NCBI GenBank assembly: GCA_034670305.1
Contig: JAXMNT010000010.1
Location: 126,885 to 190,884, forward strand
Length of the DNA: 64,000 nucleotides
Reading direction: 5' to 3'
Source of the DNA: Deltaproteobacteria bacterium
Lineage (GTDB): Bacteria > Myxococcota_A > Polyangia > Polyangiales > Houyiibacteriaceae
Shown: positions 220-54,303 of the stretch, piece by piece
Position numbering within the stretch: the first letter of the stretch is position 1
Layout: every line of letters begins with the position of its first letter
Notes under the pieces: model-generated
Database searches by the model: none
What the model saw: only the letters and a program-made list of their open reading frames with translations
What the model was told of the DNA's origin: nothing
Translations under genes and position numbers: made by a program

Positions 220-968
220 TCGTCTTCGAGCGCGGCCAGCGCTTCGGCCGAGAGCTCGAAGTCCGTGAACACGTTCTGGACGTCGTCGTGATCTTCGAGC
301 GCTTCGTAGAGCCCCATCAACTTCGCCGCGTCGTCACCCGAGACTTCTTTGACGTTGTTCGGGATGTACTCGAGCTTCGCTTCTTTGGGCTCCATGCCAC
401 CCGCCGCCAAACCGGTGGAGACCGAGTCGAGATCCTCCCGCACGGTCACGACCAACCAGACGTCGTCTTCGTCTTGCAGGTCTTCTGCGCCGACCCCAGC
501 GGCGAGCTCGAACACGGTCTCGAAGTCGCCCACCTTCTTGTCGAGCCGGATCATGCCCTTCTGCTCGAAGGCCCACATCGCAGCGCCGCTCGAGCTGAGC
601 TCGCCGTTGCCCTTCTCGAAGATCTTTCGAACTTCGGCCGCGGTGCGGTTTCGGTTGTCGGTCATCACCTCGAGCAAGAACAACGTGCCGCTCGGCCCCA
701 CGCCCTCGTAGATGAACTCCTCGTACATCACCCCTTCGAGCTCGCCGGTGCCCTTCTTGATGGCCCGGGTGATGTTGTCGTTCGGCATGTTCTCGGCGCG
801 CGCGGCTTCGATCGCGTGCCGCAGTCGGGCATTGCCGGCTGGGTCACCGCCGCCCATGCGCGCGGAGATGGTGATCTCCTTGATCAGCTTCGTAAAAATC
901 TTCCCGCGTTTGGCGTCGGCTGCGCCCTTCTTGCGTTTGATCGTCGACCACTTGCTGTGCCCACTCAT
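216..968 (-). CDS. yebC: YebC/PmpR family protein
   Basis: MSGHSKWSTIKRKKG...YEG.GP.G...TDNRNRT...LEDHDDVQNV; ATG at 968. Confidence 0.95.
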   Translation of the reverse strand: MSGHSKWSTIKRKKGAADAKRGKIFTKLIKEITISARMGGGDPAGNARLRHAIEAARAENMPNDNITRAIKKGTGELEGVMYEEFIYEGVGPSGTLFLLEVMTDNRNRTAAEVRKIFEKGNGELSSSGAAMWAFEQKGMIRLDKKVGDFETVFELAAGVGAEDLQDEDDVWLVVTVREDLDSVSTGLAAGGMEPKEAKLEYIPNNVKEVSGDDAAKLMGLYEALEDHDDVQNVFTDFELSAEALAALEDE

Positions 969-1148
969 GGGGGCGCTGATAGCACTGGCACGGCCGACGC
1001 GAAAGACAGGTTGTGGCGCCGGGTCGTGGTGCGTGTGCGCCGGCGCCCACGGGAGATCTTCCGAACCTCTGCGCCACGCGGTCGGTCGGAACGGGACCCG
1101 CGATGAAATGGGTCTATGCTGGTGGCTGTGTCCGGCCCTCTCCAAGAC

Positions 1149-41330: not shown

Positions 41331-42650
41331 TCAGCTCAGGGCGGAGAGCCGGTCGAGGAAGGATTGGCCCTTCTTCGGATCGCACATGTAGACGTAGGCG
41401 GCCCAGCCGCGGAGGACGTCCAGGCTCTCGCCCCGGCCGGGACGACCGTTCTCGCGGTTGTGGATGGCGGCGCGCAGCTCGCGGACGAGCTTGCGCGGCA
41501 CGCGCGCGGTCGGTGCGCCGTCGGGGCTCGACTTCTCGAGCGCGTTGACGACGAGGCCGGTCACCTTCTGTCGGCGGCCGCTGCGCATGACGCGGGTCTT
41601 GTACGGGTGGACCCGGAAACCTTCGTCGGTGCAGATGCGCGCGACCGCTTTGCTCAGGCGTCCAACGGGCGCCTTGTCTTTGTCCGACGAGAACGTGAGG
41701 TCGTCCGCGTAGCGGGTGTAGGTCAGGCCGAGGGTGCGGGCGAGGCCGGCCAGCCGCGCATCGAGCCGCAGACACAGGGCGTTGGTGATCGAGGGGCTCG
41801 TCGGCGCGCCCTGCGGCAGGGACCGGTCGCCCGTCGCGACGAAGTGTTTGCGACCGCGCAGCATCATCTCTTCACGCGGCGACTCGGTGCACAGGAGCGC
41901 GAGCAAGAGCGCGGTCTGTTCGCCGTAGCCAGCTTTGCGGAAGAGTCCCTTCACCCGGCCGGTGGTGATCGTCGGGTAGAAGTCGCTGAGATCGAACTTG
42001 ATGATCGTCTTGCCGCCGGCGTGCGCCTCGGCGTTCGTCTTGGTGCTGCGTCCGCGGACGAACCCGTGGGCCGCACCGTGAACCGGCAGCCGCTCGCTGA
42101 TGTTCAATGCGATCCACTTCTGGGCGCCCATCAGGATCGGCTTTGGTGCGCTGATGAGGCGCTGCCCGCCGGTACGCTTCGGAATGTGCCAACGGCGGTA
42201 GTGGGTGCCGGTGTCGACTTCGCGGTGAAAACACAACCAGCGCAGCTGGCTGATCGTCAGTCCCAGCGCTTCGCCGAGGGCGTGCTGGTCTTTGATCGGC
42301 GGGAGGTCGTTCTGCTCGCGGCGCGCCTCGATCTCGGCGATGTCGTACTTGTCGACGTCGGCGGTGTCGTGGTGCCAGAACCCGACCCCGACATGCACGA
42401 GGTGGTTCTTCTTGTACTCGGCCCAACCGTGGGCCTTGAGCAGCTTGCGCACGCGTCGCTCTTCTTCGCGGCGCGCCTTGTAGCGTTTGCGTTCGGTCTT
42501 GCTCAGGCGCGATGTGTCGACGCCTTCGTCCAAGAGGTCGCGTCGGCGGAGCTCGGCGAGGACCCAGGGCTGGACGCCGCCGGCCTCCTTGATGTCGGCC
42601 CACCGTGCGACCGGCGCCTCCGCCGGATCGGTCTTCGTCTCGTCGCTCAT
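41331..42650 (-). CDS. ret: Retron reverse transcriptase, myxobacterial Mx162/Sa163-like
   Basis: [22 protein letters not shown] (region X NAxxH), [38 protein letters not shown] (region Y VTG); long N-terminal extension. Confidence 0.96.
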
Positions 42651-42817
42651 TGGGACAACCCGCTCGCCAAATCCAGCACTGAATGAAGGGGACTCGAGCC
42701 GAAGCGCGAAGACTCAGTGCGCCATCGCACCGGTGCTTCGACCTCATCTCGGCGGCACCCGCGCGAACGATGCAAGAGGGCATCGGTGCGGGCACTCGAG
42801 AACGAAGAAGAAAAGAT

Positions 42818-43069
42818 GAGAGGGGAGGTGGAGCGCCACCTTCTTACCTGGGACACGGTAGGCTCACCGGTTGGCCCGGGGGAGGGGGTATCCCCGCCCC
42901 CCCTAAACCGCGGTTGCGTGGTTGGCCCAGCTAGGGGGGGCGGGGATACCCCCTCCCCCGAGGCCAACCAAGAACAGCCTACCTTGTGGAGCATTGAGGA
43001 ATGTTTTGCCTGGACGGCGCGACGCCGCCCTCGTGACGAGCACGGGCTGACACTCCACTCTCCCCTCTC
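42818..43069 (-). ncRNA. Retron msr-msd non-coding RNA
   Basis: Inverted repeats at 43048-43069 and 42818-42838; UCAG*CC branch context (G = complement of 43047); msr stem-loops CUCG-UCA-CGAG and GGGCGGCG-UCG-CGCCGUCC; msd stem 42869-42905/42932-42969. Confidence 0.92.
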
Positions 43070-43179
43070 GAAGTTTCTCCTCGGACCGGCAGCGCCGGTC
43101 TGGTTGTGATCGCTTCCGAAGAAGCGAAGACGTTCGCTGCGGACGCTATCGGTCCTGCAGGTTTGGATCAAGAACGAAC

Positions 43180-44991
43180 TCACGCGTCACCCCGCGTGGC
43201 GTCCAGAAATCCTTTTTGAGCACACCGATCGAGTCGGCGGAAGTACTCCTCACGCGCCTCGTCCGCGGACGAGAAGAAGAGTTTCTGCACCCGTTCGACC
43301 GTCGCACCCGGTCCACCGCGCAGGATCACCATCCGGTCGTCGAGGGACACTCGGAGCGTCGACGACCCGGTGCGTTCGCGTCGCACGAGTGTGCGGGTCT
43401 CGGCGCGGATGAGCTTGCGGCCTTCTTCGGTCTCGCGGGCGCGCTCGAGTTCGGTCTTCTGACGTGCGTAGAGCAGCCGCAGTGCGATCATCGGCGCGCT
43501 CGGTCCTTCGCGCAGGCCAGATCGTCGAAACTGAGGACTCGTGCACGAGGCGTCCACAGTCCGGCCTTCGCGGTCGAGCGTGAACGCGGTCTCGTAGCTG
43601 CGGTGGGCTGTGGCGTCTTCGACGCGGCCTTCGATGCGGGTGCCGTCGCTCCCGAGGTCGTGCACCTTCGTGAGCTGCACCGCACCTTCGGTGTCGAGCA
43701 ACCGGTGCGCCTCCGCTTCACGGGCGTCGCGGAACCGGAGCTTCGTCTCGTCGAGCGGGGTGACGAAGAGCGGCCGCGCGCGCACGGTGCCGGTCGCCGC
43801 GTCGAAGAGGATCTGTCCGCGCTGCATCAACACGAGGGTGCTGGCCCGCACCGCGCCGACATCGGCGCCGACGTTCTTTGCGAGCGCGTCGAAGCCGATG
43901 GGGGACGTCGCGGCCGCGAGCACCTTGGCGTCGAGGGCGGCATCGCGCGAGTGCGCCACCAGCAGGTCAAAGGTCGTGATGCCGGCCCAGCCGCGGTCGG
44001 TCCAGCCGCTGAGTGCCAAGGTCAGGGTCATGCCGTCGAGATCGACGATGTAGTAGGTCGGCAGCCCGGCGCCGGACAAACGCACCCGGACCGACTTCGC
44101 GTACGGCAGAAGCGGTGCGAGCACCCCGAGGCGGCGGCGTCCCCAGGTGCGCACCACGTTCGGCCGCGCGCCTTCGAACGTACCGGCGTTGCCCTCGAGC
44201 ACTCGGTCCCAGGGTTCGAGCACGAGCCGCGGCGCGTCGCCGGGGACGAGCTCGAAGCGGAGCGACCTCGGCGGCTTCTTCGACCGGTGCATGCGCAGGG
44301 TCAGCAGCACGTTGTAGATGTCGATGGGCGCGAGCGGGCAATCGTCCGCGGGCAAGGTCGCCGCGGCCTGCACCTGAGAGAGCGCACGGGACCAGCGGTT
44401 GGGCACGTGGCGGTCGGCCGGTTCGGCCTGGCCCGGCTCGAGCACCAACACCGTCTCGCGGTACGCGCGGATGTCGTCGAGTGCGCGCACCGCCGCGGCG
44501 TCGAGGCCGATGTGTGTGGTGCCCGCCGAGACGGTCGCGTCGGAGTAGCAGTCGGGTCCCACGTGCAGGTGCGCGTAGCTGGACTCGTCGGCGCTGAACA
44601 CTTCCAGCCGAAGTCCGTCCTCGCCGATGGTCAGGAGCGGGTCGAGCGGGCCCTCGGCGCGCGTCTCGGGGGGCGCGAACTCGGCTTCCAGGAACCGCTT
44701 CTGGGCTTCCCAGAGTTCCTTGGTGGCTTTGCGGCCCTGCTTGAGCAGGAACGCGAGGTAGTCCGATCGGTCCGACGCTTTGCGCCGCATGTCGGAGGCC
44801 CTGACTTCCGCCATGGTGGCCAGCACCGCGCGCAGCACGTCGGGCCGTTTGAACGTTCCGCGGAACTTCGCCTCCGAACGTTCGGCATCGGTCGGGAGCG
44901 TGAGCGTGAGTCGCTCGCCCTCTCGCACCGGCTTGGGTGCCGACGCGAGTCGTGTGCGGACGGCCGCGAAATCGTCTTGGGTGTCGCTCAC
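43180..44991 (-). CDS. Retron-associated protein with degenerate SWIM-like and WGR-like C-terminal domains
   Basis: LEVFSADESSY; ASCTS...GPSAPMIAL (SWIM-like spacing); C-terminal LRGGP...FSSADEAREEY...KGF (WGR-like); GTGA overlap with the upstream gene. Confidence 0.7.
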   Translation of the reverse strand: MSDTQDDFAAVRTRLASAPKPVREGERLTLTLPTDAERSEAKFRGTFKRPDVLRAVLATMAEVRASDMRRKASDRSDYLAFLLKQGRKATKELWEAQKRFLEAEFAPPETRAEGPLDPLLTIGEDGLRLEVFSADESSYAHLHVGPDCYSDATVSAGTTHIGLDAAAVRALDDIRAYRETVLVLEPGQAEPADRHVPNRWSRALSQVQAAATLPADDCPLAPIDIYNVLLTLRMHRSKKPPRSLRFELVPGDAPRLVLEPWDRVLEGNAGTFEGARPNVVRTWGRRRLGVLAPLLPYAKSVRVRLSGAGLPTYYIVDLDGMTLTLALSGWTDRGWAGITTFDLLVAHSRDAALDAKVLAAATSPIGFDALAKNVGADVGAVRASTLVLMQRGQILFDAATGTVRARPLFVTPLDETKLRFRDAREAEAHRLLDTEGAVQLTKVHDLGSDGTRIEGRVEDATAHRSYETAFTLDREGRTVDASCTSPQFRRSGLREGPSAPMIALRLLYARQKTELERARETEEGRKLIRAETRTLVRRERTGSSTLRVSLDDRMVILRGGPGATVERVQKLFFSSADEAREEYFRRLDRCAQKGFLDATRGDA

Positions 44992-47900
44992 GAGCCAGTC
45001 TCCGTGGATTCTTCGAATCGGGCGTCACGCTCGAGGCGTCTTTGCACGCGCCGCAGCGACTTGAAGGCCGCCTTGCGGATCGTCTCACTCTCCTTGGCGT
45101 CCTCGGTCAGAAGTGCTTCGAGGGCGGCCTGTGCCGCTTCCCCGCCGCCGCGGCCGAGCGCGGAGAGCGCCACGAGCCGCGTGGCTTCGTCCCCGGTCTT
45201 CGACTTCGCGATGAGTGTGTCTTCCCCTCGCGCGAGCAGCGGCGGCAAAGCTGCGCGCCGCACCTTCGGCTGCTCGAAGGTCGCGCTCAGATCCAGCGCC
45301 GCAGCGAGGATCAACGCGACCGTCGGGTCCGGCGCGTGAAGCGACGTGAGCACCGAGGCGACTTGGTCCGGGAAGCGGCGGACGATGGCACGGGCCGCGA
45401 GCGCGCGGTCGGGGGGCGCCGCAGTGTCGAGCCAGCCCGCGAGTTCGCGCGCGTCGAGCCGCTCGAGCAGCACGCGACGCGCCACTTCGGTCACCCGCGT
45501 CTCGTTCAGATCGAGCGCTTTGCGCGCCGTGTCGGTCACGTCGGAGCCCAGCCGCTCGGCGGCCCAGAGCGCAGCGGTCAATGCGGCTCGGGCTTCGGTA
45601 CGCACATGCGACGTCTCGCCGGCATCGGCGAGTGCCTTCGCGGCCGCCTGCGCGACATCCGGGGCAAGGGAGCCGTCGCCCTTCTCACCGGCCATCCAAG
45701 CCGCGTCCTCCCGCGGTCCATGCTTCTCCCCGCGGAGCAGGGTGCGGAGCGCGTCGACGGGCGCGAGTCCGCGGCGCAGCAGCCCGGCGCGGAGTCGTTG
45801 CCGGATGTGCGGGCTGTCGATGTCGGCGAGGCGCGAGAGCAAGGTCGCCGCGTCGCCTTCGCGCGCCAAGTACGCCGCCGCCTCGGAGTTGAGATCGTGG
45901 AACGGACTCTGGAGCGCGTGGAGCGCGACGCGCGTCGCATCCTCGGGGAAGATCTTGGTGAGGGACTCACGCGCGATCTTGCGGACCTGCCAGTCCGGCG
46001 AGAGCATCGCGTCCGCGAGCGCTTGCTCGGATGCTTTGTTCGCGAGCTGGCCCAGCAGACGGGCTGCCTGCACGCGCGCCGTCGAGTCGTCGTGCGGGTC
46101 GCCGAGGACGCGCTCGAGCAAGGTGCGCGCGGCCTCGTCCGCGATGTAGCCGAGGCCGATCATCGCGCGGGACCGCAAGAGCGAGGTCCCTTGAAGCGCG
46201 GTGCGGTCGATGTACTCGCGGATGGGTGCGGCGACTTCGGAGGTCAGGTCGCCGTTCTTGAGAAGGCGCGCGAGCGCTTCGGTGCCGTCGCCGATCAACA
46301 TGCGGTCTTCGGGATCCGCGTCGTCCGGCGGGTGCGCGAGCAACTGCAGTTCATCGAGGGCCCGGACGTCGCCCAGGGCACCGAGGGCAAGCACCGCTTT
46401 CGGACGCTCCGTCGGAAGCCCAGCCTTGAGCACGAGCAAGAGCGACTGGAGCACGCTGTCGGCCACCTGCCGGGTGCGGCTCGGGTCGGCCGATTCGGCA
46501 AGCGCCACCGCGGCGGGCAACACCAGCTCCCGGCGCCCGATGCGGAGCGCGGCGGCGAGCGCATCGCGCGCCGCGGGACGGTCGAGCTTCTCGGCCCGAA
46601 AGGCGAGCGCGCGGATGGCGCCGACGCGCACCTCTTCGTCTCGGTCCTCGGTGAGCGCGCTCAGGGTCGCGTCCGCGCTCGCATCCTCGAAGTGCTGGAG
46701 CGGGGCGATGACTTCTTTTCGAACCTTGGCGACGACCGAACGGCGCGCGGCGTCGAGCAACGGGTGCAGCCACGCTTCGTTGAAACGCAGGCGCAGCGTG
46801 CCGTTCGGAAGCTTCTCGGAGGCGCCGGTCGCGATGGCCCGCGCGGCGGTCATGGCCTGCGACCAGAGGTCGCCGTTCTCCTCGGTGAGGAGCGTGAGCA
46901 GGAGCGGGCGTGCCTCGAGGCTGCGCACGTCACCGATGGACTTGAGCAAGCCCGGCTTGTTGGCGGTGCCGTCTGGGTCGTCGGTGAACCGGGCGACCAG
47001 CGCCTGCGCGATCTCGTCGCGAAGCGGCGCGTCGCCGTCCGGTTGTTTGCGCGCGAGCGCAACCAGTGCGTTCTGCGCGGCCGTCACGACCTGCGCGCGC
47101 TCGTTGCGAAGCAACCCAGCCAGCACACCCACCGTGCGGGGGTCGCCACGGAACGCGAGCGTCGTCGCCGCCTTGAGCTGGAGGTCGACGTGTTCGCTCT
47201 CCATCGCGCGACCGAGCGCTTCGGAGATGCGCGCGTCGTCCGCACCACCACCCGTGCTCGCCACCAGCCGGTCGACGACCTGCAGCCGCACATCGGAGAA
47301 GCGGCTGCCGAGCGCCAGGAGCCACGGCTCGAGCGAACCGCTCTCGTAGAGCGACGGAAGCCGCGCCAGCGCGTGGGCGCGCACTTCGGCGTGGGACGCT
47401 TCGAGCGCTTCCACCACCAGCGCCTTGGCGGCGGCATCCGGTGCGTTGGCGTCGGTGGCCAGGGCCACCAACTCGTCGACCGCACCCCGGCCGACGTCGG
47501 GCGCGTCGGACTGGAACATCAGTCGGTACGGAGTCGGGTCGCCACCTGGACCGCCGGGATGGAGCGCCTTGAGCGCCGTCGACGCGGCTTTGCGCACCAA
47601 GTGGTGCGGATCGGAGAGTCCACGCCGCAGCACCGGCACCGTCGCGTCGCGACCGACGACCGGTGCGAGCGCTTCCACCCGTCCGAGCGCGTCCCGGCGG
47701 ATGCGGTGCGTCTCGTCCGCGGCACCCGCGGCGGGCGCCTGGCGCACGAGCCCGGCGTACACGCCAAAGACCAGTGGTGCGACTTCTTGGTCGGTCGCGG
47801 CGGTGCCGGCGGCGCGCACGAGCGAGTGCATCCAGCTCTTCTTCCGAGGCGCGCGCGTCTCCGCACTCCAGGTGGTGTGCGGGATTCGAATCTGTCCGAG

Positions 47901-50900
47901 GGCGCGCGGGCCTTGGAGCCGCGCCGCTTCCCTCCAGAACGTCTCGGCCTGCGGTCGCAGCGCGAGCAGCTGGGTCGCCGCGTATCGGAGCGGCGGGTCG
48001 TCGCTCGCGAGCGCCTCCACGACCACCCGCAGCAGCGCTTCTTGTTGCGCCTCTTCCGGCCAGTTCTTCATGTCGGCCGCGCGCTGCGGTCGGCGGGGCC
48101 CGATGAGCTCCCGGGTGCGTTCGTGGGTTCCGTCCTGGCCGCGCTCCTCGAGGAGGCGGGCCGCCGCAAACCGGATCTCCGGATGGCTGGAGCTCATCGC
48201 GCTGGAGAGCAGATCGGCGGCGAGCGCCTTCTTGGCCAAAGCCTGGTCTCTCGCGACCACGACCCCGAAGACGAGCTCTTGGATCTCCCGATCCTGATCG
48301 TCGAGCGCCATGAGCAGACCGCGGGCGCCCTCTGGGCCGAGCGCCGCGAACCCCATGATGGCGCCGAGTCGGATCGGCCGGTGATCGTGCTGGAGGGTGC
48401 CGATGAGCACCGGCAGTCCCCGCGGGTCGCCGAGTCGGGCCAGGCCTTCCGCGAGCCAACTGCGCACCGCGATCGATTCATGCGAGAGCCAGTCGACCAG
48501 GTGTCCTTCGCCGCCGGGGAGGACCGCGGTCGCCATGCCGCGGGCGGCCTGCTCCGCCACGAGCGGGTCGGTGTCTTGCAGCAGCGTGATGAAGAACGGG
48601 ATGAGGCCGGTCACGCCAGTGTTCGCGAGCGCCTGCGCGAGGCGCTGGCGATGCGGTGCCACCGGGCGGCGCGGATCTTCGAGCGGCAGGGTCAGGAGGC
48701 GCCGGGCCGGTTCGACGCAGCGCCGGTCGCGGCGGGCCGCGCAGAGTTCGATCGCGCGGACGCGCAGCTCGTAGAACACACTTCCGAACGCGGTCGTGAA
48801 CGCGACCTCGTCGCCCGGCTTGAGCCGGTCGAAACATCGGATCGCGGCCAGGTGCACCGCGCTGCGTTCGTCTTCGATGAGCTGCAGCACCGTCGGGCGC
48901 AGTTCGAGGAACGCGGAGGGGGGAAGTTTGCTGCAGGCGAGCGCGAGCACCTTCTCGGAGCTCGAGCGAAGCGCCGCCGCGTGCAGATCCACCCGGGTCA
49001 CTTCGAGCGCGAGCAGCCCTTCGTACGCTTTGCGGGCGACGTCGAACGACGAGTCGGAGGCGAGCTCTACGAGCAAATCCTCGACCCAGGCCTCCGCAGG
49101 CTGCTCCTCGGTCGCGGCCTTTCGCAACCTCAAGAGCTCGTCGACGATCTTGCCGCGCAGATCCGGGTGGCGGGCGCGACTGGCGCGGCTGAGCGCGGGC
49201 TCGGGAGACGCGGAGTGCCACGCCCACAGCGTCCGGAAGGCTTCGTCGCGGGTCTTCGCGTCTTCGTCGTCGAGCGCGTGCCCGAGCCAGTTGTCCGCGC
49301 GTGCGCCGAGTTCTGAGTCCCCGGCGTACTCGCCTTCGCCGCCAAACGCGACGAGGAGCTGGAGGCCGCGGCGTCGGACCGCGGGATGCGGACACCGCAG
49401 AGCGATCTCCGAGAGATCCAGCCGTGCGCTGCCGTCTTTGCCGGCGAGCCCTTCGAGGGCATCGAACGCCGCGGTGCGGGCACCGTCGTCGTCGTCCGCG
49501 AGCAACCACTCGAGCCGTCCTCGGAGCGCGGCCAAGCCCACGCCCTGGCGGATCGCTTGCAGGGCGACGCCGATGGCGATGCGACGAACCGATGCCTGCG
49601 GGTTGCGGGAGAGCTGCAGGATCGCGCCGGTCGCGCGTTCGTCTCGCAGGGTCGCGAGCGCCGAGGCACCCGCGATGGCGGAGCCGACATTGCGGCACGC
49701 GAGCATCGCGAAGAGCGGCTCTTTGGCCTTCTCGAGCGGGATCGTCTCCTGAGGGAACGCGCCCTCCGCCTGTGCGGCGGCGAGCTGTTTCATCAGGACT
49801 TCGTTGCTCGAGAGCGCCGAGACGAGCGGGGCGCGGCAGCCGATGGCGACCGAGACCGCGGCCTGACGCACGTCCGAGCTCTCGTCGTCGAGCGCGGCTT
49901 CGACGATCTCCGCCCCGGTGGTGAGCGCGAGCCGGGCACGGGCCAGTTTGTAGAGCGCCTCGCGTTTGACGTCCGCCTCGCCGCGCGCGAACGCGGTGCG
50001 GGCGGGTTCGATCGACTCCGGTCCATCGAGTGAGACGAGCGCGTCGAGCGCGGCGAGCCGCACCTTGGAGTCGCCGTCTTTGAGCCGCTGCGCGATGAGG
50101 CCGGGCACGAGCGGCGAGGCTTTGCGCAGCATCGGAAGCCGCGCGAGCGCGACGATGCGCATGTCGGGCGCAGGGGACGCGAGCGCGGCCTGCGCCACGG
50201 CCAGCGGCCGGTCGCGTTCGATCGAGGTGAGGGCGTCGAGGGCGGCCTTGCGGACCCCGGCGTTCTTGTCGCCGAGCGCGGTGCGCAGTGCGGGACGGCT
50301 CGCGCGCCGGGCCGAGCGGCCGATGAGCACTGCGGCGTGGCCACGCATGGCGGGCGCCCCGTCGCTCGTGAGCGAACGATCGAGCAACCGCCGCGCGTCG
50401 TCTTCCGGGAGGCCGCCGATGGTGTCGAGCGCCGCCTTGCGGGCTTTCTCGGCCGAAGCTTTCGCAGCCTTCGCGAGTTCGGCGAGGCGCGACTTGACCT
50501 GACGGGCCTGGCCCACGGTCGCGTCGGGTTCGAGGGCGATCGCGTCCACGCGGCGCGTGCGACCCACCACGACGAGCCCGCCGGTCTGACTCGCTGCGTT
50601 GGGCGCCGCGGCCACCCAGGCCATGGCGCTGGGATCGCCACCGAGTTCGTGCGTCTTCGGACGTTTGCGCGAGTCGAGGTCCCACACCCGCAGCGCCGCA
50701 TCGCGGGCCACGGTGTAGAGGCGTCGCGGCAGCGCACGGCCCACATCGTCTAGGAGCGCGGGGCCGCGCACGATGCCGACGATCGCGCGCTCGTGGTCGA
50801 TGCCCTTCGAGCGGTGTTCGAACTCGGGTGCCCCTTCGAGGTACCCGACGTGGAGGGAGCCGTCCAAACAGCCGGCGACCACCCGGCCATCGTCGGTGGT

Positions 50901-51476
50901 CAAGACCGCGCCGACCCCTTCGGGCGTCGGCATCCGGCGGGGCGTGGCGCCCAGGTCAGCGGCTGGTACGACCACCACTTCGCTGGCGTCGCCACCGACC
51001 ACGATGCGTTCCCCGCGCGCGTCGAATGCCACACACAGAAGCGGTCGCGCCCCGAGCGAGAGTTCGCCGGCGGGCGACAGGGTGCCGCCTTCGAGGGTCC
51101 AGACCTTGAGGGCTCCGTCGTCGCCCACACTCGCGACCTGGTTCCCGAAGGTCGCGATGCCGCGCACCGCGCCACCGTGTGCGGCGACCGCCGCTCCGAA
51201 CGTCTGCGCGCCGATCTGGGCGACGTGCAGCTCTCCTCGTTCGTTGCCGATGAGTGCGACGTCGTCGGTGGCGCATGCGAGGGCAGTCGTCGGATGCGGC
51301 ATCGCCAGCGCGCCGGCGGCTTTGAGCTCCGGCACGACGAGAATGTGTACGCTCGAGAGCGCGCGCGCCGCGTCGTCCGCGTCGACTTCCCGTCGCCCGC
51401 CGATGAGTACGTGGCCGCCGGCCGGAGTCGATGCGACCGCCTCGAGGCGTTCGATGTGGGGTCCAAACGTGGTCAC
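44988..51476 (-). CDS. Retron-associated giant WD40 + HEAT/ARM-repeat protein (~2160 aa)
   Basis: N-terminal HGGAVRGI...SVGDDGALKVW and RDAALRVWD; many LxD.d..VR.aA..aL repeats; GTG at 51476 overlaps the upstream TGA. Confidence 0.85.
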   Translation of the reverse strand: MTTFGPHIERLEAVASTPAGGHVLIGGRREVDADDAARALSSVHILVVPELKAAGALAMPHPTTALACATDDVALIGNERGELHVAQIGAQTFGAAVAAHGGAVRGIATFGNQVASVGDDGALKVWTLEGGTLSPAGELSLGARPLLCVAFDARGERIVVGGDASEVVVVPAADLGATPRRMPTPEGVGAVLTTDDGRVVAGCLDGSLHVGYLEGAPEFEHRSKGIDHERAIVGIVRGPALLDDVGRALPRRLYTVARDAALRVWDLDSRKRPKTHELGGDPSAMAWVAAAPNAASQTGGLVVVGRTRRVDAIALEPDATVGQARQVKSRLAELAKAAKASAEKARKAALDTIGGLPEDDARRLLDRSLTSDGAPAMRGHAAVLIGRSARRASRPALRTALGDKNAGVRKAALDALTSIERDRPLAVAQAALASPAPDMRIVALARLPMLRKASPLVPGLIAQRLKDGDSKVRLAALDALVSLDGPESIEPARTAFARGEADVKREALYKLARARLALTTGAEIVEAALDDESSDVRQAAVSVAIGCRAPLVSALSSNEVLMKQLAAAQAEGAFPQETIPLEKAKEPLFAMLACRNVGSAIAGASALATLRDERATGAILQLSRNPQASVRRIAIGVALQAIRQGVGLAALRGRLEWLLADDDDGARTAAFDALEGLAGKDGSARLDLSEIALRCPHPAVRRRGLQLLVAFGGEGEYAGDSELGARADNWLGHALDDEDAKTRDEAFRTLWAWHSASPEPALSRASRARHPDLRGKIVDELLRLRKAATEEQPAEAWVEDLLVELASDSSFDVARKAYEGLLALEVTRVDLHAAALRSSSEKVLALACSKLPPSAFLELRPTVLQLIEDERSAVHLAAIRCFDRLKPGDEVAFTTAFGSVFYELRVRAIELCAARRDRRCVEPARRLLTLPLEDPRRPVAPHRQRLAQALANTGVTGLIPFFITLLQDTDPLVAEQAARGMATAVLPGGEGHLVDWLSHESIAVRSWLAEGLARLGDPRGLPVLIGTLQHDHRPIRLGAIMGFAALGPEGARGLLMALDDQDREIQELVFGVVVARDQALAKKALAADLLSSAMSSSHPEIRFAAARLLEERGQDGTHERTRELIGPRRPQRAADMKNWPEEAQQEALLRVVVEALASDDPPLRYAATQLLALRPQAETFWREAARLQGPRALGQIRIPHTTWSAETRAPRKKSWMHSLVRAAGTAATDQEVAPLVFGVYAGLVRQAPAAGAADETHRIRRDALGRVEALAPVVGRDATVPVLRRGLSDPHHLVRKAASTALKALHPGGPGGDPTPYRLMFQSDAPDVGRGAVDELVALATDANAPDAAAKALVVEALEASHAEVRAHALARLPSLYESGSLEPWLLALGSRFSDVRLQVVDRLVASTGGGADDARISEALGRAMESEHVDLQLKAATTLAFRGDPRTVGVLAGLLRNERAQVVTAAQNALVALARKQPDGDAPLRDEIAQALVARFTDDPDGTANKPGLLKSIGDVRSLEARPLLLTLLTEENGDLWSQAMTAARAIATGASEKLPNGTLRLRFNEAWLHPLLDAARRSVVAKVRKEVIAPLQHFEDASADATLSALTEDRDEEVRVGAIRALAFRAEKLDRPAARDALAAALRIGRRELVLPAAVALAESADPSRTRQVADSVLQSLLLVLKAGLPTERPKAVLALGALGDVRALDELQLLAHPPDDADPEDRMLIGDGTEALARLLKNGDLTSEVAAPIREYIDRTALQGTSLLRSRAMIGLGYIADEAARTLLERVLGDPHDDSTARVQAARLLGQLANKASEQALADAMLSPDWQVRKIARESLTKIFPEDATRVALHALQSPFHDLNSEAAAYLAREGDAATLLSRLADIDSPHIRQRLRAGLLRRGLAPVDALRTLLRGEKHGPREDAAWMAGEKGDGSLAPDVAQAAAKALADAGETSHVRTEARAALTAALWAAERLGSDVTDTARKALDLNETRVTEVARRVLLERLDARELAGWLDTAAPPDRALAARAIVRRFPDQVASVLTSLHAPDPTVALILAAALDLSATFEQPKVRRAALPPLLARGEDTLIAKSKTGDEATRLVALSALGRGGGEAAQAALEALLTEDAKESETIRKAAFKSLRRVQRRLERDARFEESTETGS

Positions 51477-54202
51477 GCGCGTGCCTCCGCGTCGGTGGGT
51501 TCGAGCGAGAGCTGCGATGCGAGCGAGGGGTGCGCCCGGCGAATCCGTGCGAGCGCCGCCACACAGGCGTGCCACTCACCCTTGGCTTCCGAGTGGGCGA
51601 ACGAGGTCAGCGGGGCAGCGGCGAGGGCTGCGAACTCGGCGTTCTCCATGGCGAGGTCGCGCACCACTTCGATCAGCCGGCGCTTGGCCACACTGGCGGG
51701 GATCGGGCGCTGCTTGAGGGCGTCGTCGCCGCGGCGTTCCATGCGTCCCGGCGGCAGCCCGAAGAGAATGCGTCGCACGAAAAGCTCCAGCGCGGCGCGA
51801 TCTTCGAACTCCTCGTTGCGACGGCTCCAGAGCAGACGCACCGCGAAGATGCGCACGTCCCGCTCCGAACTCTCCATCAGCCACACCAGCCGCGCGGTGC
51901 TTCCGATCGCGGCGTAGTGGGTGAGGATCACATCGAGCGCCGCTTCGCGGGTCGACTTGTGGCGGCTCTCCGCGAGCTCGAACATCAACGCTCCGTCGAG
52001 CCATTCGATCGGCACCGCGTCGACCGGCCGCCAGGCGTCTTCGCGACCCGACGCGAGCGAGCCGGCGTCGCGGGCTTCCCCGATGGCGCGCAGTACGCTC
52101 GTACCGAACCGGCGGGCTTCGGGTTTCGGCGCGCCGGAAAGTCGGTACGCGAGCTTCGGCTCGTTCCAGACAACGATCTCTTGTTTGGCCACGGCGACGG
52201 CGAACCGTCGAAGCTCGGGCAACGCGTCGCGGAAGACCGGAGTCACCCGCGCGGCCGTGTACGATTCACGCGCCAGACGCGGCGCCACGCCGAGCTGGCG
52301 CGCGGACTCGGTCTTCGGCCCGAGCACCGGGTGGTGCAGGGTCAGGTAGTTCGCGGCGAACTGGCGAACCGCATCCGGCTCGGTCGGGGCGAGCAGCGAC
52401 CAGATCTTCTCTTCTCCGGCCGCTTCGTTGCCGCCTGCGAAGTCCGCCGGCGCAAAATGCTGCAGCAGGTAGCGCTGTGCGAACTGCGCGATCTGGGCAT
52501 CCGACTGACGCGACATCGAGAGCAGCCAGGCGAATCCCACGCGGTGTGGTTCGACGAACTTGGTCAGCACCGTGAACGCCATGTTGCGGGTGCTGGCCCG
52601 GTTCACGAGGCCCTTGAGCCAGTCGACGTCGAGCGCGGCGCCCTTGAGTTTGCCCGCGGTCAGCCACCGCTGCACTTCGGACGCGAAACGCCGGTCGTGC
52701 ACGCCCTGCATCACCCACGCCGCGCCGATCTCCTCGATCGGGCGCTTGCCCAGCTCACCTCGCAAGACGTTGTTGATCTGCCACTGGTTGAAGCCATCGC
52801 TCTCGACGAGTGCGATCAGGTGGCTGGTCGGTGGCTCGGTCTTCGTCTCCTGGTACCACTTGGCGAGGAAGTTCTCTTGCCCGCCGCGACGCAGCTGGAT
52901 GTACTGCGCTTCGGTCAACGCGGTCGGCGCGAACGCCTCTTTGAGCTTGGTCTGCGCCAGGTTCTTGAGCGACCCGATCTTCAGCATGCGCAACAGCCGC
53001 TCGAGACCGAGCTGCGTCGCGGAACGTTTCTCGAGCCGCTCGACCGCGAACTTGGTGGCGGGCGGCAGGGGCGCCTGCGCGACTTCCAGCAGCGCGTCGT
53101 CGTCGAGGTCGGGCGCATGCGCTTGCGCGTACTCCACCGCGTAGAGACACGCGTCCAGGAGCGTGGACCGAAGAAGTGAGAGCACCAGATCGTGCAGGCC
53201 CGCGGCCTTGAGTTTCGACTGGTGGAAGTCGGGGTTCGCCTTGAGGGTCTCGACCACGAACTGATGCAGGCGCGCTTGAGGGCGGCTTCCGAGCCGCACC
53301 AGCCAGGCCACATCGGGTGAACGGAGCTCGTCGGGGAAGTCCTGCTGCAGGCTCCGAATCGCGAAGTCGAGGACCTCGTCTTGCTGGCCGTCTTCGAGCA
53401 AACGCAGGAGCGGCTCGGGGGTGACCTTCCACGCTTCGTCGAACGCGCGGCGCGAGAGATCCTGGGGCGGCTTGGTGATCCAGGAGCTGGTGACGTACTT
53501 GAGGTCTTCGTGGGCCCACATCTGCGGGAGCACCCACGTGCCCCAGAGGTTGTTGCCCCGGTAGTGGCGCATCACCTGGACCGCGTAGTTCGGGTAGGCC
53601 TCCGGCACCGAAGCGCCGAGGTGCCGCAAGAACCGCCACGCCCGACGACGCAAGTACGCGTAGGTCGCGCCACCGACTTCGTTGTTCTGCTTGGTCTGAT
53701 AGATCTGATCGAAGCGCCACGCGAAGAGCCCGAACAGCTCTGCATCGAACCGGGCCTCGGCGCGTTTGTAGAGCTTCTTCAGCCCGCGCCAGATCCCCCA
53801 CGAGATGCGGACGTCGCGCACGATCTGCAGCAGCTGCGCCCGCGCGTACGCGTCGCCGGCTTCCGCGCGGTCGTCGAGGTCGAGCACGAAGGGCCCGAGC
53901 CGCAGACGCGGCGGTGGGTGGTCGATGTCCTCGAGCTGCCGCCAAGCGTTCTGCCGAATCGCTTTCTTCTGCTCGTCCGTCTTGCCGTAGAGCGACCATT
54001 TGCCGAGCGCGGTCCGGACCTTCTGCAGGTTCCAGGCATCGGACGGTGGTCTCGGTACAGGCTTCTGCGGATCGTGATCCTCGGGCACGCCGTTGGGCGG
54101 GTCCGGTTGTTCGGCGTACGCGCAGACGAGCTCGGCCAGTCGTGGGTCAGAGGACTCGAGCGCCCGCTCCAGGTCCTCGAAGTAGTGCAGGCGGTCCCCC
54201 AT
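51473..54202 (-). CDS. Retron-associated large alpha-helical protein (909 aa)
   Basis: First gene of the coupled operon; YLRRRAWRFLR motif; helical-repeat character. Confidence 0.75.
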   Translation of the reverse strand: MGDRLHYFEDLERALESSDPRLAELVCAYAEQPDPPNGVPEDHDPQKPVPRPPSDAWNLQKVRTALGKWSLYGKTDEQKKAIRQNAWRQLEDIDHPPPRLRLGPFVLDLDDRAEAGDAYARAQLLQIVRDVRISWGIWRGLKKLYKRAEARFDAELFGLFAWRFDQIYQTKQNNEVGGATYAYLRRRAWRFLRHLGASVPEAYPNYAVQVMRHYRGNNLWGTWVLPQMWAHEDLKYVTSSWITKPPQDLSRRAFDEAWKVTPEPLLRLLEDGQQDEVLDFAIRSLQQDFPDELRSPDVAWLVRLGSRPQARLHQFVVETLKANPDFHQSKLKAAGLHDLVLSLLRSTLLDACLYAVEYAQAHAPDLDDDALLEVAQAPLPPATKFAVERLEKRSATQLGLERLLRMLKIGSLKNLAQTKLKEAFAPTALTEAQYIQLRRGGQENFLAKWYQETKTEPPTSHLIALVESDGFNQWQINNVLRGELGKRPIEEIGAAWVMQGVHDRRFASEVQRWLTAGKLKGAALDVDWLKGLVNRASTRNMAFTVLTKFVEPHRVGFAWLLSMSRQSDAQIAQFAQRYLLQHFAPADFAGGNEAAGEEKIWSLLAPTEPDAVRQFAANYLTLHHPVLGPKTESARQLGVAPRLARESYTAARVTPVFRDALPELRRFAVAVAKQEIVVWNEPKLAYRLSGAPKPEARRFGTSVLRAIGEARDAGSLASGREDAWRPVDAVPIEWLDGALMFELAESRHKSTREAALDVILTHYAAIGSTARLVWLMESSERDVRIFAVRLLWSRRNEEFEDRAALELFVRRILFGLPPGRMERRGDDALKQRPIPASVAKRRLIEVVRDLAMENAEFAALAAAPLTSFAHSEAKGEWHACVAALARIRRAHPSLASQLSLEPTDAEARA

Positions 54203-54303
54203 GGACCGCGGACGCTACCGGATCGAAGCAACCTCGATCAACGAACATCCGCAACGAAGAAGAAACTCTCGACCGCAAGGGAGGATTGCCCCGCGCGAGC
54301 GTA

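Follow-up and report, generated by a model that had tools for sequence, protein, structure and literature searches.

Within the window, the whole 64-kb stretch of DNA that was analysed, a retron cassette spans positions 54202-41331 on the minus strand and comprises three accessory genes, an msr-msd RNA gene and a reverse transcriptase (RT) gene, with the following features:

54212..54241, minus strand: promoter-like motif TTGATC-N18-TAGCGT, of putative function, with its end 10 nt upstream of the 909-aa gene's ATG
54202-51473, minus strand: 909-aa HEAT/ARM solenoid protein (P0004; PADLOC HEAT-ARM_XIII PDLC02921, 1.9e-228, residues 8-895)
51476-44988, minus strand: giant WD40+HEAT protein, 2162 aa (P0003 read from GTG 51476; PADLOC HEAT-ARM_XIII PDLC02919)
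~51353-50610, minus strand: WD40-like beta-propeller at the N-terminus of the giant, with HEAT repeats from there to the C-terminal end
44991-43180, minus strand: 603-aa SWIM_XIII-family protein (P0002; PADLOC SWIM_XIII, 1.9e-134, residues 17-511)
44637-44002, minus strand: clamp-fold module of P0002 (approximate; residues 119-330; AF2 and Foldseek)
43986-43777, minus strand: winged helix of P0002 (approximate; residues 336-405)
43680-43492, minus strand: SWIM-like domain of P0002 without zinc ligands (approximate; residues 438-500)
43404-43198, minus strand: WGR-like C-terminal domain of P0002 (approximate; residues 530-598)
43143..43171, minus strand: promoter-like motif TTGATC-N17-TAGCGT, upstream of msr-msd
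43069-42818, minus strand: msr-msd ncRNA gene, 252 nt, between the SWIM gene and the RT (inverted repeats, fold energy, covariation)
43069-43053, minus strand: a1 repeat of msr-msd (inverted-repeat search)
43047, minus strand: candidate branching G, within a conserved (T/C)AGCC
43044-43012, minus strand: two msr hairpins
42969-42869, minus strand: msd with long hairpin
42833-42818, minus strand: a2 repeat of msr-msd (inverted-repeat search)
42650-41331, minus strand: retron RT, 439 aa (P0001; PADLOC RT_XIII, 1e-151)
42035-42021, minus strand: NAEAH of the RT (residues 206-210, read in translation)
41711-41700, minus strand: YADD of the RT (residues 314-317, read in translation)
41564-41556, minus strand: VTG of the RT (residues 363-365, read in translation)

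For all four proteins the best-scoring PADLOC models are those of type XIII retrons; for the RT the next-best model was RT_other, at 1.1e-92. The RT also matches Pfam RVT_1 (7.2e-21), and its closest solved structure in a PDB profile search is the RT of Ec86 (1.8e-35). Because the type XIII models come first for all four proteins, and the RT motifs are accompanied by an RNA with a1 and a2 repeats and a long hairpin, the locus is almost certainly a type XIII retron of the Mx162/Sa163 family, and it is the sub-variant with two HEAT/ARM genes. An earlier note on this DNA had reported a complete retron of the Mx162 clade, or type XIII, whose RT bears NAxxH, YADD and VTG; all three motifs are present, every feature it described was found where it had been placed, and PADLOC together with synteny in relatives bears out the assignment. 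Its view that the function of type XIII is uncharacterised also agrees with our literature search, which returned no experiments on this type. The arrangement itself is not new: dedicated PADLOC models cover the full length of both the giant and the 909-aa protein, and Mestre et al. 2020 already describe the class (Retron-Mxa1/Mx162, Mxa2/Mx65, Sau1/Sa163 and Nex2/Ne144), including a variant with two HEAT/ARM genes. The window resembles that description in its best RT model, in a 'cluster 114'-type SWIM protein encoded immediately before the RNA and RT, in HEAT/ARM genes upstream of the SWIM gene, as in the published 'two genes' variant, and in a structured ncRNA with a long msd hairpin; clusters 259_1 and 1688_1 of the same source are candidate counterparts, in either order, of the giant and the 909-aa protein. 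Four features were not met in the literature searched: the predicted clamp fold of the SWIM protein, the loss of its zinc motif together with a WGR-like C-terminus, its predicted docking on the RT, and the shared promoter-like motif.

The msr-msd region folds with an energy of -181.9 kcal/mol (z = -12.08), which none of 200 shuffles equalled, and the msd includes a perfect 29-bp hairpin (42877-42905 with 42932-42960). Of 20 related loci, 17 have a detectable copy of the RNA. Alignment A3, with 17 sequences, shows compensatory changes in 43 of 75 consensus pairs; the sequence of the msd hairpin is highly variable while its pairing is kept. Rfam gave no match at the gathering score, and its sub-threshold matches were to generic hairpin models only. 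The conserved core lies 158 nt from a2, from which we infer an msDNA of about 160 nt; presumably the long msd hairpin would yield a product of Mx162/Sa163 size. At the other three related loci (L007, L012 and L020) the gap between the SWIM gene and the RT is less than 60 nt and the msr-msd or long hairpin is not recognisable nearby, so that the RNA may there be located elsewhere or be dispensable.

The three accessory genes are joined by two GTGA overlaps, both reported previously, one between the TGA of the 909-aa gene and the GTG of the giant (51476-51473), the other between the TGA of the giant and the GTG of the 603-aa gene (44991-44988). Since the same promoter-like motif stands before the 909-aa gene and before msr-msd, the cassette probably forms two transcription units, an accessory operon and an RNA-RT unit; of the single minus-strand unit proposed in the earlier note, the coupling of three genes therefore stands and the single transcript probably does not. 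The pattern TTGAYN{16,19}TASCKT has two matches in the 64-kb window, against 0.07 expected, one before each unit. Of 15 related loci checked, five (L005, L006, L007, L010 and L021) also have it close to where the 909-like gene begins, and in 9 of 14 related RNA-bearing loci checked it lies 22-59 nt ahead of the start of the RNA profile match.

An RNA-RT unit with seemingly its own promoter would suit a minimal retron of RT and ncRNA, to which the three upstream genes are functionally unconnected neighbours. So would a terminator-like hairpin overlapping the stop of the 603-aa gene, though such sites number 13 against 7.8 expected, and so would loci L014 and L020, where no HEAT genes lie upstream. 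This reading is contradicted by synteny. The cassette is found in other Myxococcota, and the 909-like, giant and SWIM genes keep the same order in 15 of 20 related loci (14 by tblastn, and L019 by PADLOC) with unrelated flanks; 14 of these 15 also contain the RT, L006 being cut off by a contig end. In 18 of the 20 loci the RT comes next after the SWIM gene, and the remaining two stop at a contig edge. A full-length giant occurs in 13 of 201 sampled genomes of the phylum: SWIM_XIII adjoins it in all 13, and the RT is beside SWIM_XIII in 11, the other two contigs stopping 17 and 268 nt past the SWIM match. Synteny, a check suggested in the earlier note, supports three large accessory proteins that are inherited together. 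With one promoter motif ahead of both units, a predicted interface between the 603-aa protein and the RT, and the co-evolution reported by Mestre et al. 2020, mere neighbourhood is exceedingly improbable. What is observed is a set of four conserved, syntenic genes and a covarying msr-msd RNA.

Pfam assigns no family to the 909-aa protein. Its AF2 model (pLDDT 90.0) is helical throughout, and Foldseek returned only generic HEAT scaffolds (CAND1, SF3B1, PP2A-A; TM ~0.2); a 909-like homologue, P0130, bears a Pfam-verified WGR domain (1.1e-17). The longest reading of the giant is 51575-44988, or 2195 aa, but the GTGA overlap and family and tblastn alignments that begin at about residue 37 favour a start at GTG 51476 and a protein of 2162 aa, in agreement with the ~2160 aa given before. 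PDLC02919 matches residues 37-2184 of the long ORF with E=0. The WD40-like N-terminus and HEAT repeats previously described are confirmed, by Pfam HEAT_2 (1.2e-59) and by beta-propeller families that reach the N-terminus at sub-cut-off scores only; in a PDB sequence search the sole matches were the designed repeat proteins alphaRep and Tako8.

For the 603-aa protein neither Pfam nor NCBIfam gives a family, and its membership of the SWIM family comes from PADLOC alone. The AF2 model (pLDDT 84.8, pTM 0.85) has 485 Foldseek matches in the PDB at E<=0.001; those listed, with E from 2.3e-07 and mostly TMt 0.52-0.71, are PCNA chains or PCNA-containing complexes, except one, which is the Rad9-Hus1-Rad1 clamp. 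In a viral library the top matches listed are PCNA, DnaN and herpesvirus processivity factors, with TMt up to 0.67 for PCNA and clamps. Residues ~119-330 are accordingly modelled like the two-domain subunit of a sliding clamp, such as PCNA or 9-1-1 (TMt up to 0.71 in the PDB), DnaN or the herpesvirus factors. Unlike true sliding clamps, the module has no sequence-level matches (8-11% identity to the PDB clamps listed; no PDB matches at E<=1 for the alignment profile A1) and shares a single compact chain with winged-helix, SWIM-like and WGR-like domains. The N-terminal half is thus predicted to adopt a PCNA/beta-clamp fold, as a resemblance and not as family membership. DprA_WH and other HTH matches were obtained for 11 and 12 of 53 homologues. 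In the SWIM domain CxC..CxH reads C-T-S...S-A-P and three of the four zinc ligands are gone; this clade, unlike canonical type XIII, lacks CxCx12CxH and keeps only C483.

The genome carries three type XIII retrons in total, and the protein studied here differs from its two canonical paralogues in an added C-terminal domain of ~90 aa. By hhalign, residues 535-598 align to a Pfam-verified WGR domain with E 0.049; Pfam WGR itself matched one of seven C-terminal segments scanned (E 0.13, 12.8 bits against a cut-off of 22), and not the window's own. The AF2 model has four strands and a helix here. WGR domains are known from PARP1-3 and from bacterial proteins such as MolR/YehH. The C-terminal 70 residues of the 603-aa protein are in register with the verified WGR of the 909-like homologue, but the match is under the Pfam threshold, 'LRGG' replaces the 'RWG' of most homologues, and the domain is predicted to sit on the RT, instead of or besides DNA ends. 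Sequence comparison therefore suggests a WGR-like domain only weakly, and of the SWIM/WGR-like call made earlier the first part holds through PADLOC and the second, faintly, for the C-terminus of the 603-aa protein.

Mestre et al. 2020 propose, from a DEDE motif in cluster 114 (Dx7[D]x4Ex30-32Dx37E), that the SWIM protein is a nuclease; it would then be the effector, a domesticated IS256/Mutator-type transposase restrained by the msDNA-RT complex and regulated by the HEAT proteins. In agreement with this, D117, E130, D135 and E136 vary little or not at all among 53 homologues and are kept in the two canonical paralogues. Mutator/FAR1 proteins, moreover, have a transposase domain followed by a SWIM domain. 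But the motif, at ~117-200, falls inside the region modelled confidently as a clamp fold; transposase, integrase and RNase H structures are absent among the top matches listed from the PDB and viral libraries; Pfam, NCBIfam and PDB profile searches gave no transposase family; and three of four zinc ligands are lost in the window's clade. We regard an effector nuclease as distinctly unlikely.

When RT residues 45-439 were modelled together with the 603-aa protein, the median score was 0.78, and the best control reached 0.01. Among solved complexes 58 of 80 attain this mark, as do 2 of 110 mismatched pairs, counts that apply only roughly because custom alignments were used; the score is the model's own confidence, with msDNA absent from the prediction. 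The runs share at least 83% of contacts, with a partner pLDDT of at least 77. The contact involves RT residues 114-115, 182, 186-192, 198-200 and 294-305 and residues 554-589 of the partner, within its WGR-like domain; profile A1 found no similar solved complex. Modelling, a check suggested earlier, thus supports in silico a physical link to the RT for the 603-aa protein, and it is reasonably probable that the two bind. A contact in the WGR-like domain is consistent with the report by Mestre et al. 2020 that it is cluster 216, which bears WGR, and not SWIM cluster 114 that co-evolves with the RT of type XIII.

The ten flanking ORFs scanned encode MgtE, TerC, DUF455, DUF2330, a glycosyltransferase, GluRS, a PilZ-domain protein, an XdhC-family protein, a repeat protein with Vgb_lyase/MopE matches and one product without a match. 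The neighbours are housekeeping genes rather than a defence island. As had been claimed, these ORFs include no integrase and the base composition is flank-like (GC 0.667-0.717 in the cassette, 0.64-0.71 in the flanks); the 64-kb window contains no tRNA genes.

These surroundings would fit a domesticated module of host DNA repair, replication or developmental control, made up of msDNA-RT, a reader of clamp-fold/WGR-like build and the giant HEAT proteins as scaffolds, much as DNA ends are sensed in eukaryotes by HEAT giants and by WGR proteins. Accessory proteins without a toxin domain, the presence of three type XIII retrons in one genome and the lack of relatives found on viral contigs point the same way. 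So do Mestre et al. 2020, with a moderate correlation of 0.78 between type XIII and host 16S and the view that some retrons are possibly domesticated. Against this stands a patchy distribution: RT_XIII occurs in 28 of 201 genomes of the phylum sample, RT_XIII, SWIM_XIII and the giant each in none of 13 sampled genomes of the same family, and the window's flanking genes are shared by none of the 20 related loci; the last two of these results do not bear out the long residence supposed earlier. The 909-like homologues also occur in Gammaproteobacteria, for example Candidatus Competibacter, and this points to horizontal spread of the kind that defence genes typically show; the variation of the msd hairpin with its pairs maintained looks like diversification; and the retron types named in the published abstracts surveyed are characterised there as anti-phage. 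Domestication into a non-defence role, a possibility raised in the earlier note, is a rather unlikely alternative.

Characterised guard retrons (Ec86/Eco1 of type II-A, Eco7/Ec78 of type I-A, Eco2, Eco8 and Kva2 of type IX) share with the window a tripartite make-up of RT, msDNA and accessory protein, a homologous RT and direct RT-accessory contact, here predicted only. According to the abstract of PMC12548924, a toxic effector is kept sequestered by the RT together with ncRNA and RT-DNA, and phage triggers its release. The accessory mass here is far greater, at ~3,700 aa, and the N-glycosidase, PtuAB ATPase/nuclease or Toprim effectors reported for those systems have no recognisable counterpart. 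As already remarked in the earlier note, no nuclease, NADase or membrane-effector family was found by Pfam, NCBIfam, PADLOC or fold search; nor was any toxin or enzyme domain found in the accessory proteins, which leaves a guard model without its effector.

We nevertheless favour a type XIII retron in which an adaptor and a scaffold serve a guard. The RT would start from the 2'-OH on the G at ~43047 and copy the msd into ~160 nt of msDNA, which would include a DNA hairpin of ~45 bp. This molecule would be read by the 603-aa protein as adaptor, its clade-specific WGR-like domain strand-pairing onto the fingers region of the RT (residues 186-192), and its clamp-fold module, winged helix and zinc-less SWIM domain holding the stem and ends of the msDNA. 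The 909-aa HEAT/ARM and 2162-aa WD40+HEAT proteins, translationally coupled to the adaptor and driven by the same type of promoter as the RNA-RT unit, would build a very large nucleoprotein scaffold around the adaptor and RT-msDNA. By analogy with characterised retrons, a phage factor that altered or destroyed the msDNA would set the accessory proteins free or rearrange them, and these proteins would then block growth or phage replication. It is tempting to suggest that the output is DNA-bound interference, for instance clamp mimicry at replication forks, instead of an enzymatic toxin, but such a non-enzymatic output is a doubtful guess. An anti-phage guard role has about even chances, and the proposal as a whole, which we judge slightly better than even, is the best explanation of how this retron may work.

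The first retron ever found falls in type XIII, the class to which Mx162 belongs. All four proteins of the minus-strand cassette are named by PADLOC as parts of a type XIII retron, models which as regards anti-phage protection are annotation only, and the placing of this locus with the Mx162 clade in an earlier note is thereby borne out. The best model for the RT is RT_XIII (1e-151, 504 bits), the next being RT_other (1.1e-92); the 603-aa protein matches SWIM_XIII (1.9e-134); the giant protein matches the HEAT-ARM_XIII model PDLC02919 with end-to-end coverage (E = 0); and the 909-aa protein matches another HEAT-ARM_XIII model, PDLC02921 (1.9e-228). The available part of Mestre et al. 2020 (PMC7736814) describes type XIII as comprising clade-10 RTs (Mx162, Mx65, Sa163, Ne144), a cluster-114 protein that combines a winged helix and a 'DEDE motif' with the SWIM motif CxCx12CxH at its C-terminus, a preceding HEAT/ARM gene, 'in some cases' two (clusters 259_1 and 1688_1), and a distinct ncRNA structure. 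Since that account already holds these features, the gene arrangement is a catalogued one, and the cassette is a type XIII retron of the two-HEAT-gene variant. It agrees with the published type in having HEAT/ARM genes ahead of the SWIM gene, in conserved order, and departs from it in that its SWIM protein, which the HMM places in the family, lacks the canonical zinc motif. A 2026 survey (PMC13712802), in its available part, places type XIII among the commoner retron groups as a 'known-type expansion'. In the literature searched, no experimental study of type XIII was found, nor any paper on a retron with a PCNA-like protein or on WGR, SWIM and MoxR together, and for a retron with SWIM and HEAT nothing relevant appeared beyond the SPIRE survey.

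The four genes are long open reading frames, and in all of them GC content varies with codon position as it does in real genes.

Protein-coding genes of the cassette
54202-51473, minus strand: gene for the 909-aa HEAT/ARM protein
51575 (longest reading) or 51476 (GTG) to 44988, minus strand: gene for the giant, 2162 aa from the GTG
44991-43180, minus strand: gene for the 603-aa SWIM_XIII-family protein
42650-41331, minus strand: gene for the RT, 439 aa

The accessory genes are joined, as originally read, by GTGA start/stop overlaps at both upstream junctions (51476-51473 and 44991-44988). Because the family-model and tblastn alignments of the giant begin at about residue 37 of its longest reading, its start is probably the GTG at 51476, and the 2162 aa counted from there agree with the length of about 2160 aa first given. 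Pfam RVT_1 (7.2e-21) identifies the 439-aa protein as a reverse transcriptase; the NAxxH, YADD and VTG motifs previously ascribed to it are read in translation as NAEAH (206-210), YADD (314-317) and VTG (363-365), and are kept across 21 aligned RTs. A spacer of 530 nt separates the 603-aa gene from the RT. The whole of this RNA-gene spacer is covered by a 178-aa ORF (42647-43183, minus strand), which is most likely spurious since it failed the codon-position GC filter and overlaps a conserved structured RNA. A terminator-like hairpin (43181-43198, minus strand) overlaps the 603-aa stop codon, just upstream of the promoter-like motif of the RNA gene; such sites are not rare in the window, where 13 were found and 7.8 expected.

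When one genome per species was scanned with the 603-aa protein, 20 related loci were recovered at 46-64% identity, most of them labelled as Myxococcota or Deltaproteobacteria (Polyangiales, Haliangium, Paraliomyxa, Sandaracinus; MAGs or isolates) and two as 'Proteobacteria bacterium' and 'uncultured bacterium'. Genes for a 909-like protein, a giant and a SWIM protein stand in the window's order in 15 of the 20 (by tblastn; by PADLOC for locus L019), and the RT is also present in 14 of these 15, the other (L006) ending at a contig edge. Over the full set, 18 of 20 loci have an RT after SWIM, and the remaining two stop at a contig edge. In L004 and L018 the sequence breaks off within the giant and in L012 at 280 nt upstream of SWIM, while L014 and L020 have other genes upstream of SWIM. 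In L014 the place of the HEAT genes is taken by an opposite-strand gene (507-3026, minus) for an 839-aa protein with a PADLOC match of PD-T4-6 kinase type (6.4e-66); because kinases of this kind abound in these bacteria, the neighbour may be there by chance.

The phylum was surveyed through an even sample of 201 genomes, the window's own included. RT_XIII (E ≤ 1e-60) was present in 28 of these, SWIM_XIII in 22 and PDLC02919 in 19, the last divided into 13 full-length giants and 6 weak HEAT matches. A SWIM_XIII gene directly adjoins every one of the 13 full-length giants, so that the synteny across Myxococcota on which the earlier note had staked its proposal is upheld; the RT in turn adjoins SWIM in 11 of the 13 genomes, and the contigs of the other two end 17 and 268 nt past the SWIM match. 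The genes flanking the cassette in the window are absent from all 20 related loci, and the RT_XIII, SWIM_XIII and giant families are found in none of 13 genomes of the window's own family. As the order is kept, the flanks are not shared and same-family genomes lack it, the cassette travels as a unit and has a patchy distribution, which argues against the long residence suggested for it before. The observations behind that suggestion stand, the GC content of the cassette matching its flanks and no integrase lying near it; a tRNA gene is likewise absent nearby. Those observations had also been taken to hint at a non-defence role, and such a role, in DNA metabolism, is a rival to the defensive reading set out below.

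Homologues of the 909-aa protein also occur in Gammaproteobacteria, for example Candidatus Competibacter and Contendobacter, and the cultured Haliangium ochraceum has one (P0138). No relative of the SWIM protein was found on viral contigs. Among 14 named control genomes, RT_XIII and SWIM_XIII each match Bacteroides thetaiotaomicron alone and the giant's model matches Methanosarcina acetivorans alone, presumably through its HEAT repeats. In another genome of the survey, G111, contig C79 carries a tail-to-tail pair of type XIII retrons (175956-189768), one with SWIM and RT on the plus strand (175956-179698) and one with giant, SWIM and RT on the minus strand (189768-180075).

The spacer upstream of the RT houses the RNA gene, and a promoter-like motif lies ahead of both this gene and the 909-aa gene.

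Inverted repeats and promoter-like motifs
43069-43053, minus strand: a1, inverted repeat (17/16 nt with a2)
42833-42818, minus strand: a2, inverted repeat with a1
54241-54212, minus strand: promoter-like motif 1, ending 10 nt before the ATG of the 909-aa gene
43171-43143, minus strand: promoter-like motif 2, upstream of a1

Between a1 and a2 lie two short hairpins and a long one, the core of which pairs perfectly over 29 bp, and the fold of this stretch was equalled by none of 200 shuffles (z = -12.08). At the gathering score no Rfam family, and so no retron RNA family, matches the window, and a permissive search gave generic hairpin models (microRNA) alone, below threshold. The core of the RNA is conserved by nhmmer in 17 of the 20 related loci, the L004 copy being truncated. 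RNAalifold, applied to an alignment of 17 sequences, returned 75 pairs, 43 of which keep pairing via changes on both sides; these covarying pairs take in the a1/a2 helix and almost all of the long hairpin, the sequence of which differs freely between loci. On the 3' side of a1 the same alignment has a conserved (T/C)AGCC. The G of AGC is taken here, after the older retron literature, to be the retron branch point, which makes G 43047 the candidate in this locus. The distance from the conserved core to a2, 158 nt, points to an msDNA of about 160 nt, presumably comparable in size to those of Mx162 and Sa163. Three related loci have a gap of below 60 nt between SWIM and RT (L007:11818-11870, L012:2065-2083, L020:11677-11736), and neither an msr-msd nor the long hairpin was found near these genes by RNA profile, motif search or inverted-repeat scan of the available DNA. 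L020 has a GC content of 0.59 and lacks both HEAT genes.

The motif TTGAYN16-19TASCKT has exactly two matches in the 64-kb window against 0.07 expected, and 1 of 100 shuffles reached two, statistics that were calculated after the TAGCGT-type motif had been spotted by eye. It precedes the RNA in 9 of 14 related loci checked and lies near the start of the 909-like gene in 5 of 15; a standard sigma-70 scan found no promoter-like site within the cassette. The locus is read as probably two transcription units sharing one promoter type, a reading that is kept tentative since the −10-like hexamer differs from the sigma-70 consensus. Contigs of two metatranscriptome libraries (X10 and X7) fall on the RNA gene, at 42844-43261 of the window. 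One of 181 nt is identical to 42844-43024; another of 175 nt has the same flanks and a diverged hairpin of equal length, and so probably comes from a relative; the third, of 314 nt, spans 42949-43261 with 11 differences. Such contigs do not prove transcription and are a weak hint that the RNA gene is transcribed, and the parts of the cassette without them are uninformative on expression. Four DNA sequencing runs with a full share are possibly the source sample itself and do not count as independent.

The window's own genome carries two further type XIII retrons, on contigs C67 (L024:9723-15681) and C23 (L025:10943-16261), with RTs 44-46% identical to that of the window. Their HEAT/ARM genes, one in each, are of 850 aa and 573 aa, their SWIM_XIII genes have CxCx12CxH intact, and both retrons are without the giant and without a WGR-like tail. 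The RNA profile of the window matches neither, and Pfam WGR is absent from the HEAT/ARM genes and the upstream ORFs of both. Upstream of the C67 retron, on the same strand, two genes (L024:7586-8377 and L024:8864-9610) encode a Macro-domain protein (2.3e-07) and a product bearing the domain of 23S rRNA intervening-sequence proteins (1.3e-09). That a Macro domain stands beside a system linked with WGR may be significant or may be chance.

The 603-aa protein has no match in Pfam or NCBIfam, and in the protein atlas its relatives are confined to the atlas's own SWIM-labelled Myxococcota clusters. Its structure was modelled with a pLDDT of 84.8 and a pTM of 0.85. Compared with the PDB by Foldseek, the N-terminal half gave 485 matches at E ≤ 0.001, to sliding clamps; among the matches listed, all but one are PCNA chains or PCNA-containing complexes, the exception being the Rad9-Hus1-Rad1 clamp, with E from 2.3e-07, TMt mostly 0.52-0.71 and 8-11% identity. 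The Foldseek probability is 1.00, and TMt reaches 0.71 for PDB PCNA/9-1-1 and 0.67 for viral PCNA/clamp models, the viral structure library giving PCNA, DnaN and herpesvirus processivity factors. The N-terminal half is therefore predicted to have a two- or three-domain clamp fold. Its likeness to PCNA and DnaN lies in the predicted fold and does not extend to sequence homology, a profile of the family having no PDB match at E ≤ 1, and for this reason the protein is not filed as a sliding clamp. Neither clamp nor PCNA is mentioned for type XIII in the available parts of PMC7736814 and PMC13712802. The clamp fold, if true, would take the place of the transposase-like one put forward in 2020. The matches listed in the PDB and viral libraries include neither a transposase nor an RNase H fold, and the published DEDE residues map inside the clamp-like module. 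A rival account makes these same residues a cryptic DEDE nuclease and the output of the system; no enzyme domain is visible in any accessory protein, as the earlier note had held in recognising no nuclease, NADase or membrane effector.

Beyond the clamp-like module lies a winged helix, with matches to DprA_WH or other HTH models in 11-12 of 53 homologues. The description of the protein as SWIM/WGR-like holds in part. Membership of SWIM_XIII is given by the HMM, and the zinc motif has been lost: the SWIM-like domain of the window's clade reads C-T-S...S-A-P, with one of four zinc ligands kept, against the intact motif of the two paralogues. The WGR-like part is a C-terminal extension of about 90 aa, absent from both paralogues. 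Pfam WGR (PF05406) was matched by 1 of 7 C-terminal segments, at 12.8 bits against a cut-off of 22 (E 0.13), and had no match in the window's own segment; hhalign places residues 535-598 in register with the WGR domain of P0130 (E 0.049), and one source names two homologues as WGR proteins. Because its score lies below the Pfam gathering threshold the extension is called WGR-like, not WGR, on weak evidence. P0130 itself is a 909-like protein of 1029 aa, with an N-terminal extension that carries a Pfam-verified WGR domain (residues 132-198, 1.1e-17), and the WGR module therefore moves between partners of the type XIII system.

The 909-aa protein, which likewise has no match in Pfam or NCBIfam, is modelled as an all-helical solenoid (pLDDT 90.0); a fold search gave generic HEAT solenoids alone, at low TM, and so is uninformative on function. 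The giant consists of a WD40-like propeller followed by HEAT repeats throughout, and no further domain was found in it by Pfam, NCBIfam or PDB sequence search.

Of the multi-subunit complex imagined in the earlier note, one pairing was modelled, and its binding is supported as a prediction. Modelled from separate alignments, the RT (residues 45-439) and the 603-aa protein had a median score of 0.78 against 0.01 for the best control. Of 80 solved complexes 58 attain this mark, as do 2 of 110 mismatched pairs; these counts apply roughly here since the alignments were custom ones. At least 83% of contacts are common to the runs, the partner pLDDT is at least 77, and because no like complex has been solved the result is unlikely to reflect a memorised structure. 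The predicted interface joins RT 186-192 (with 114-115, 198-200 and 294-305) to residues 554-589 of the 603-aa protein, that is, to its WGR-like domain. This fits the co-evolution reported in the available part of Mestre et al. (PMC7736814), where the partner of the type XIII RT is cluster 216, which bears WGR, rather than SWIM cluster 114, and it suggests that the WGR-like module may be an RT adaptor wherever it is fused.

The locus is a conserved four-gene and RNA cassette with a covarying RNA and translationally coupled accessory genes. In a model of its action, the RT would make an msDNA some 160 nt long; the 603-aa protein would be tethered to the RT and would bind the long duplex stem and the ends of the msDNA; and the two HEAT proteins would build a large scaffold around them. 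In characterised retrons, according to the available part of PMC12548924, the complex of RT, RNA and RT-DNA restrains an effector until a phage interferes. By analogy, once the msDNA was disturbed the accessory proteins would be released and could act. No enzyme domain is visible for the output step; the preferred guess, ahead of a DEDE nuclease or a role outside defence, would be DNA-bound interference by the clamp-like protein and the scaffolds.

Taken further, this guess leads to the proposal, which is thought improbable, that type XIII may work without an enzymatic toxin, through an RT-tethered clamp-fold reader and a scaffold that impose a phage-triggered block on replication. The SWIM-family reader, tethered to the RT via its WGR-like domain, would keep the long hairpin of the msDNA within a scaffold of HEAT/WD40 proteins exceeding 400 kDa, and when a phage disturbed the msDNA the clamp-like protein and scaffolds would load on replicating DNA and block its replication. 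If true, this would be a new output logic for retrons and a parallel to eukaryotic HEAT-giant/WGR DNA-end sensors. The catalogue of retron classes is unchanged by this locus. The predicted clamp fold and RT-docking domain offer specific leads that can be put to the test in a class for which no experimental account was found, and together with the shared promoter motif they would, if upheld, guide mutagenesis and structural work on cultured carriers.
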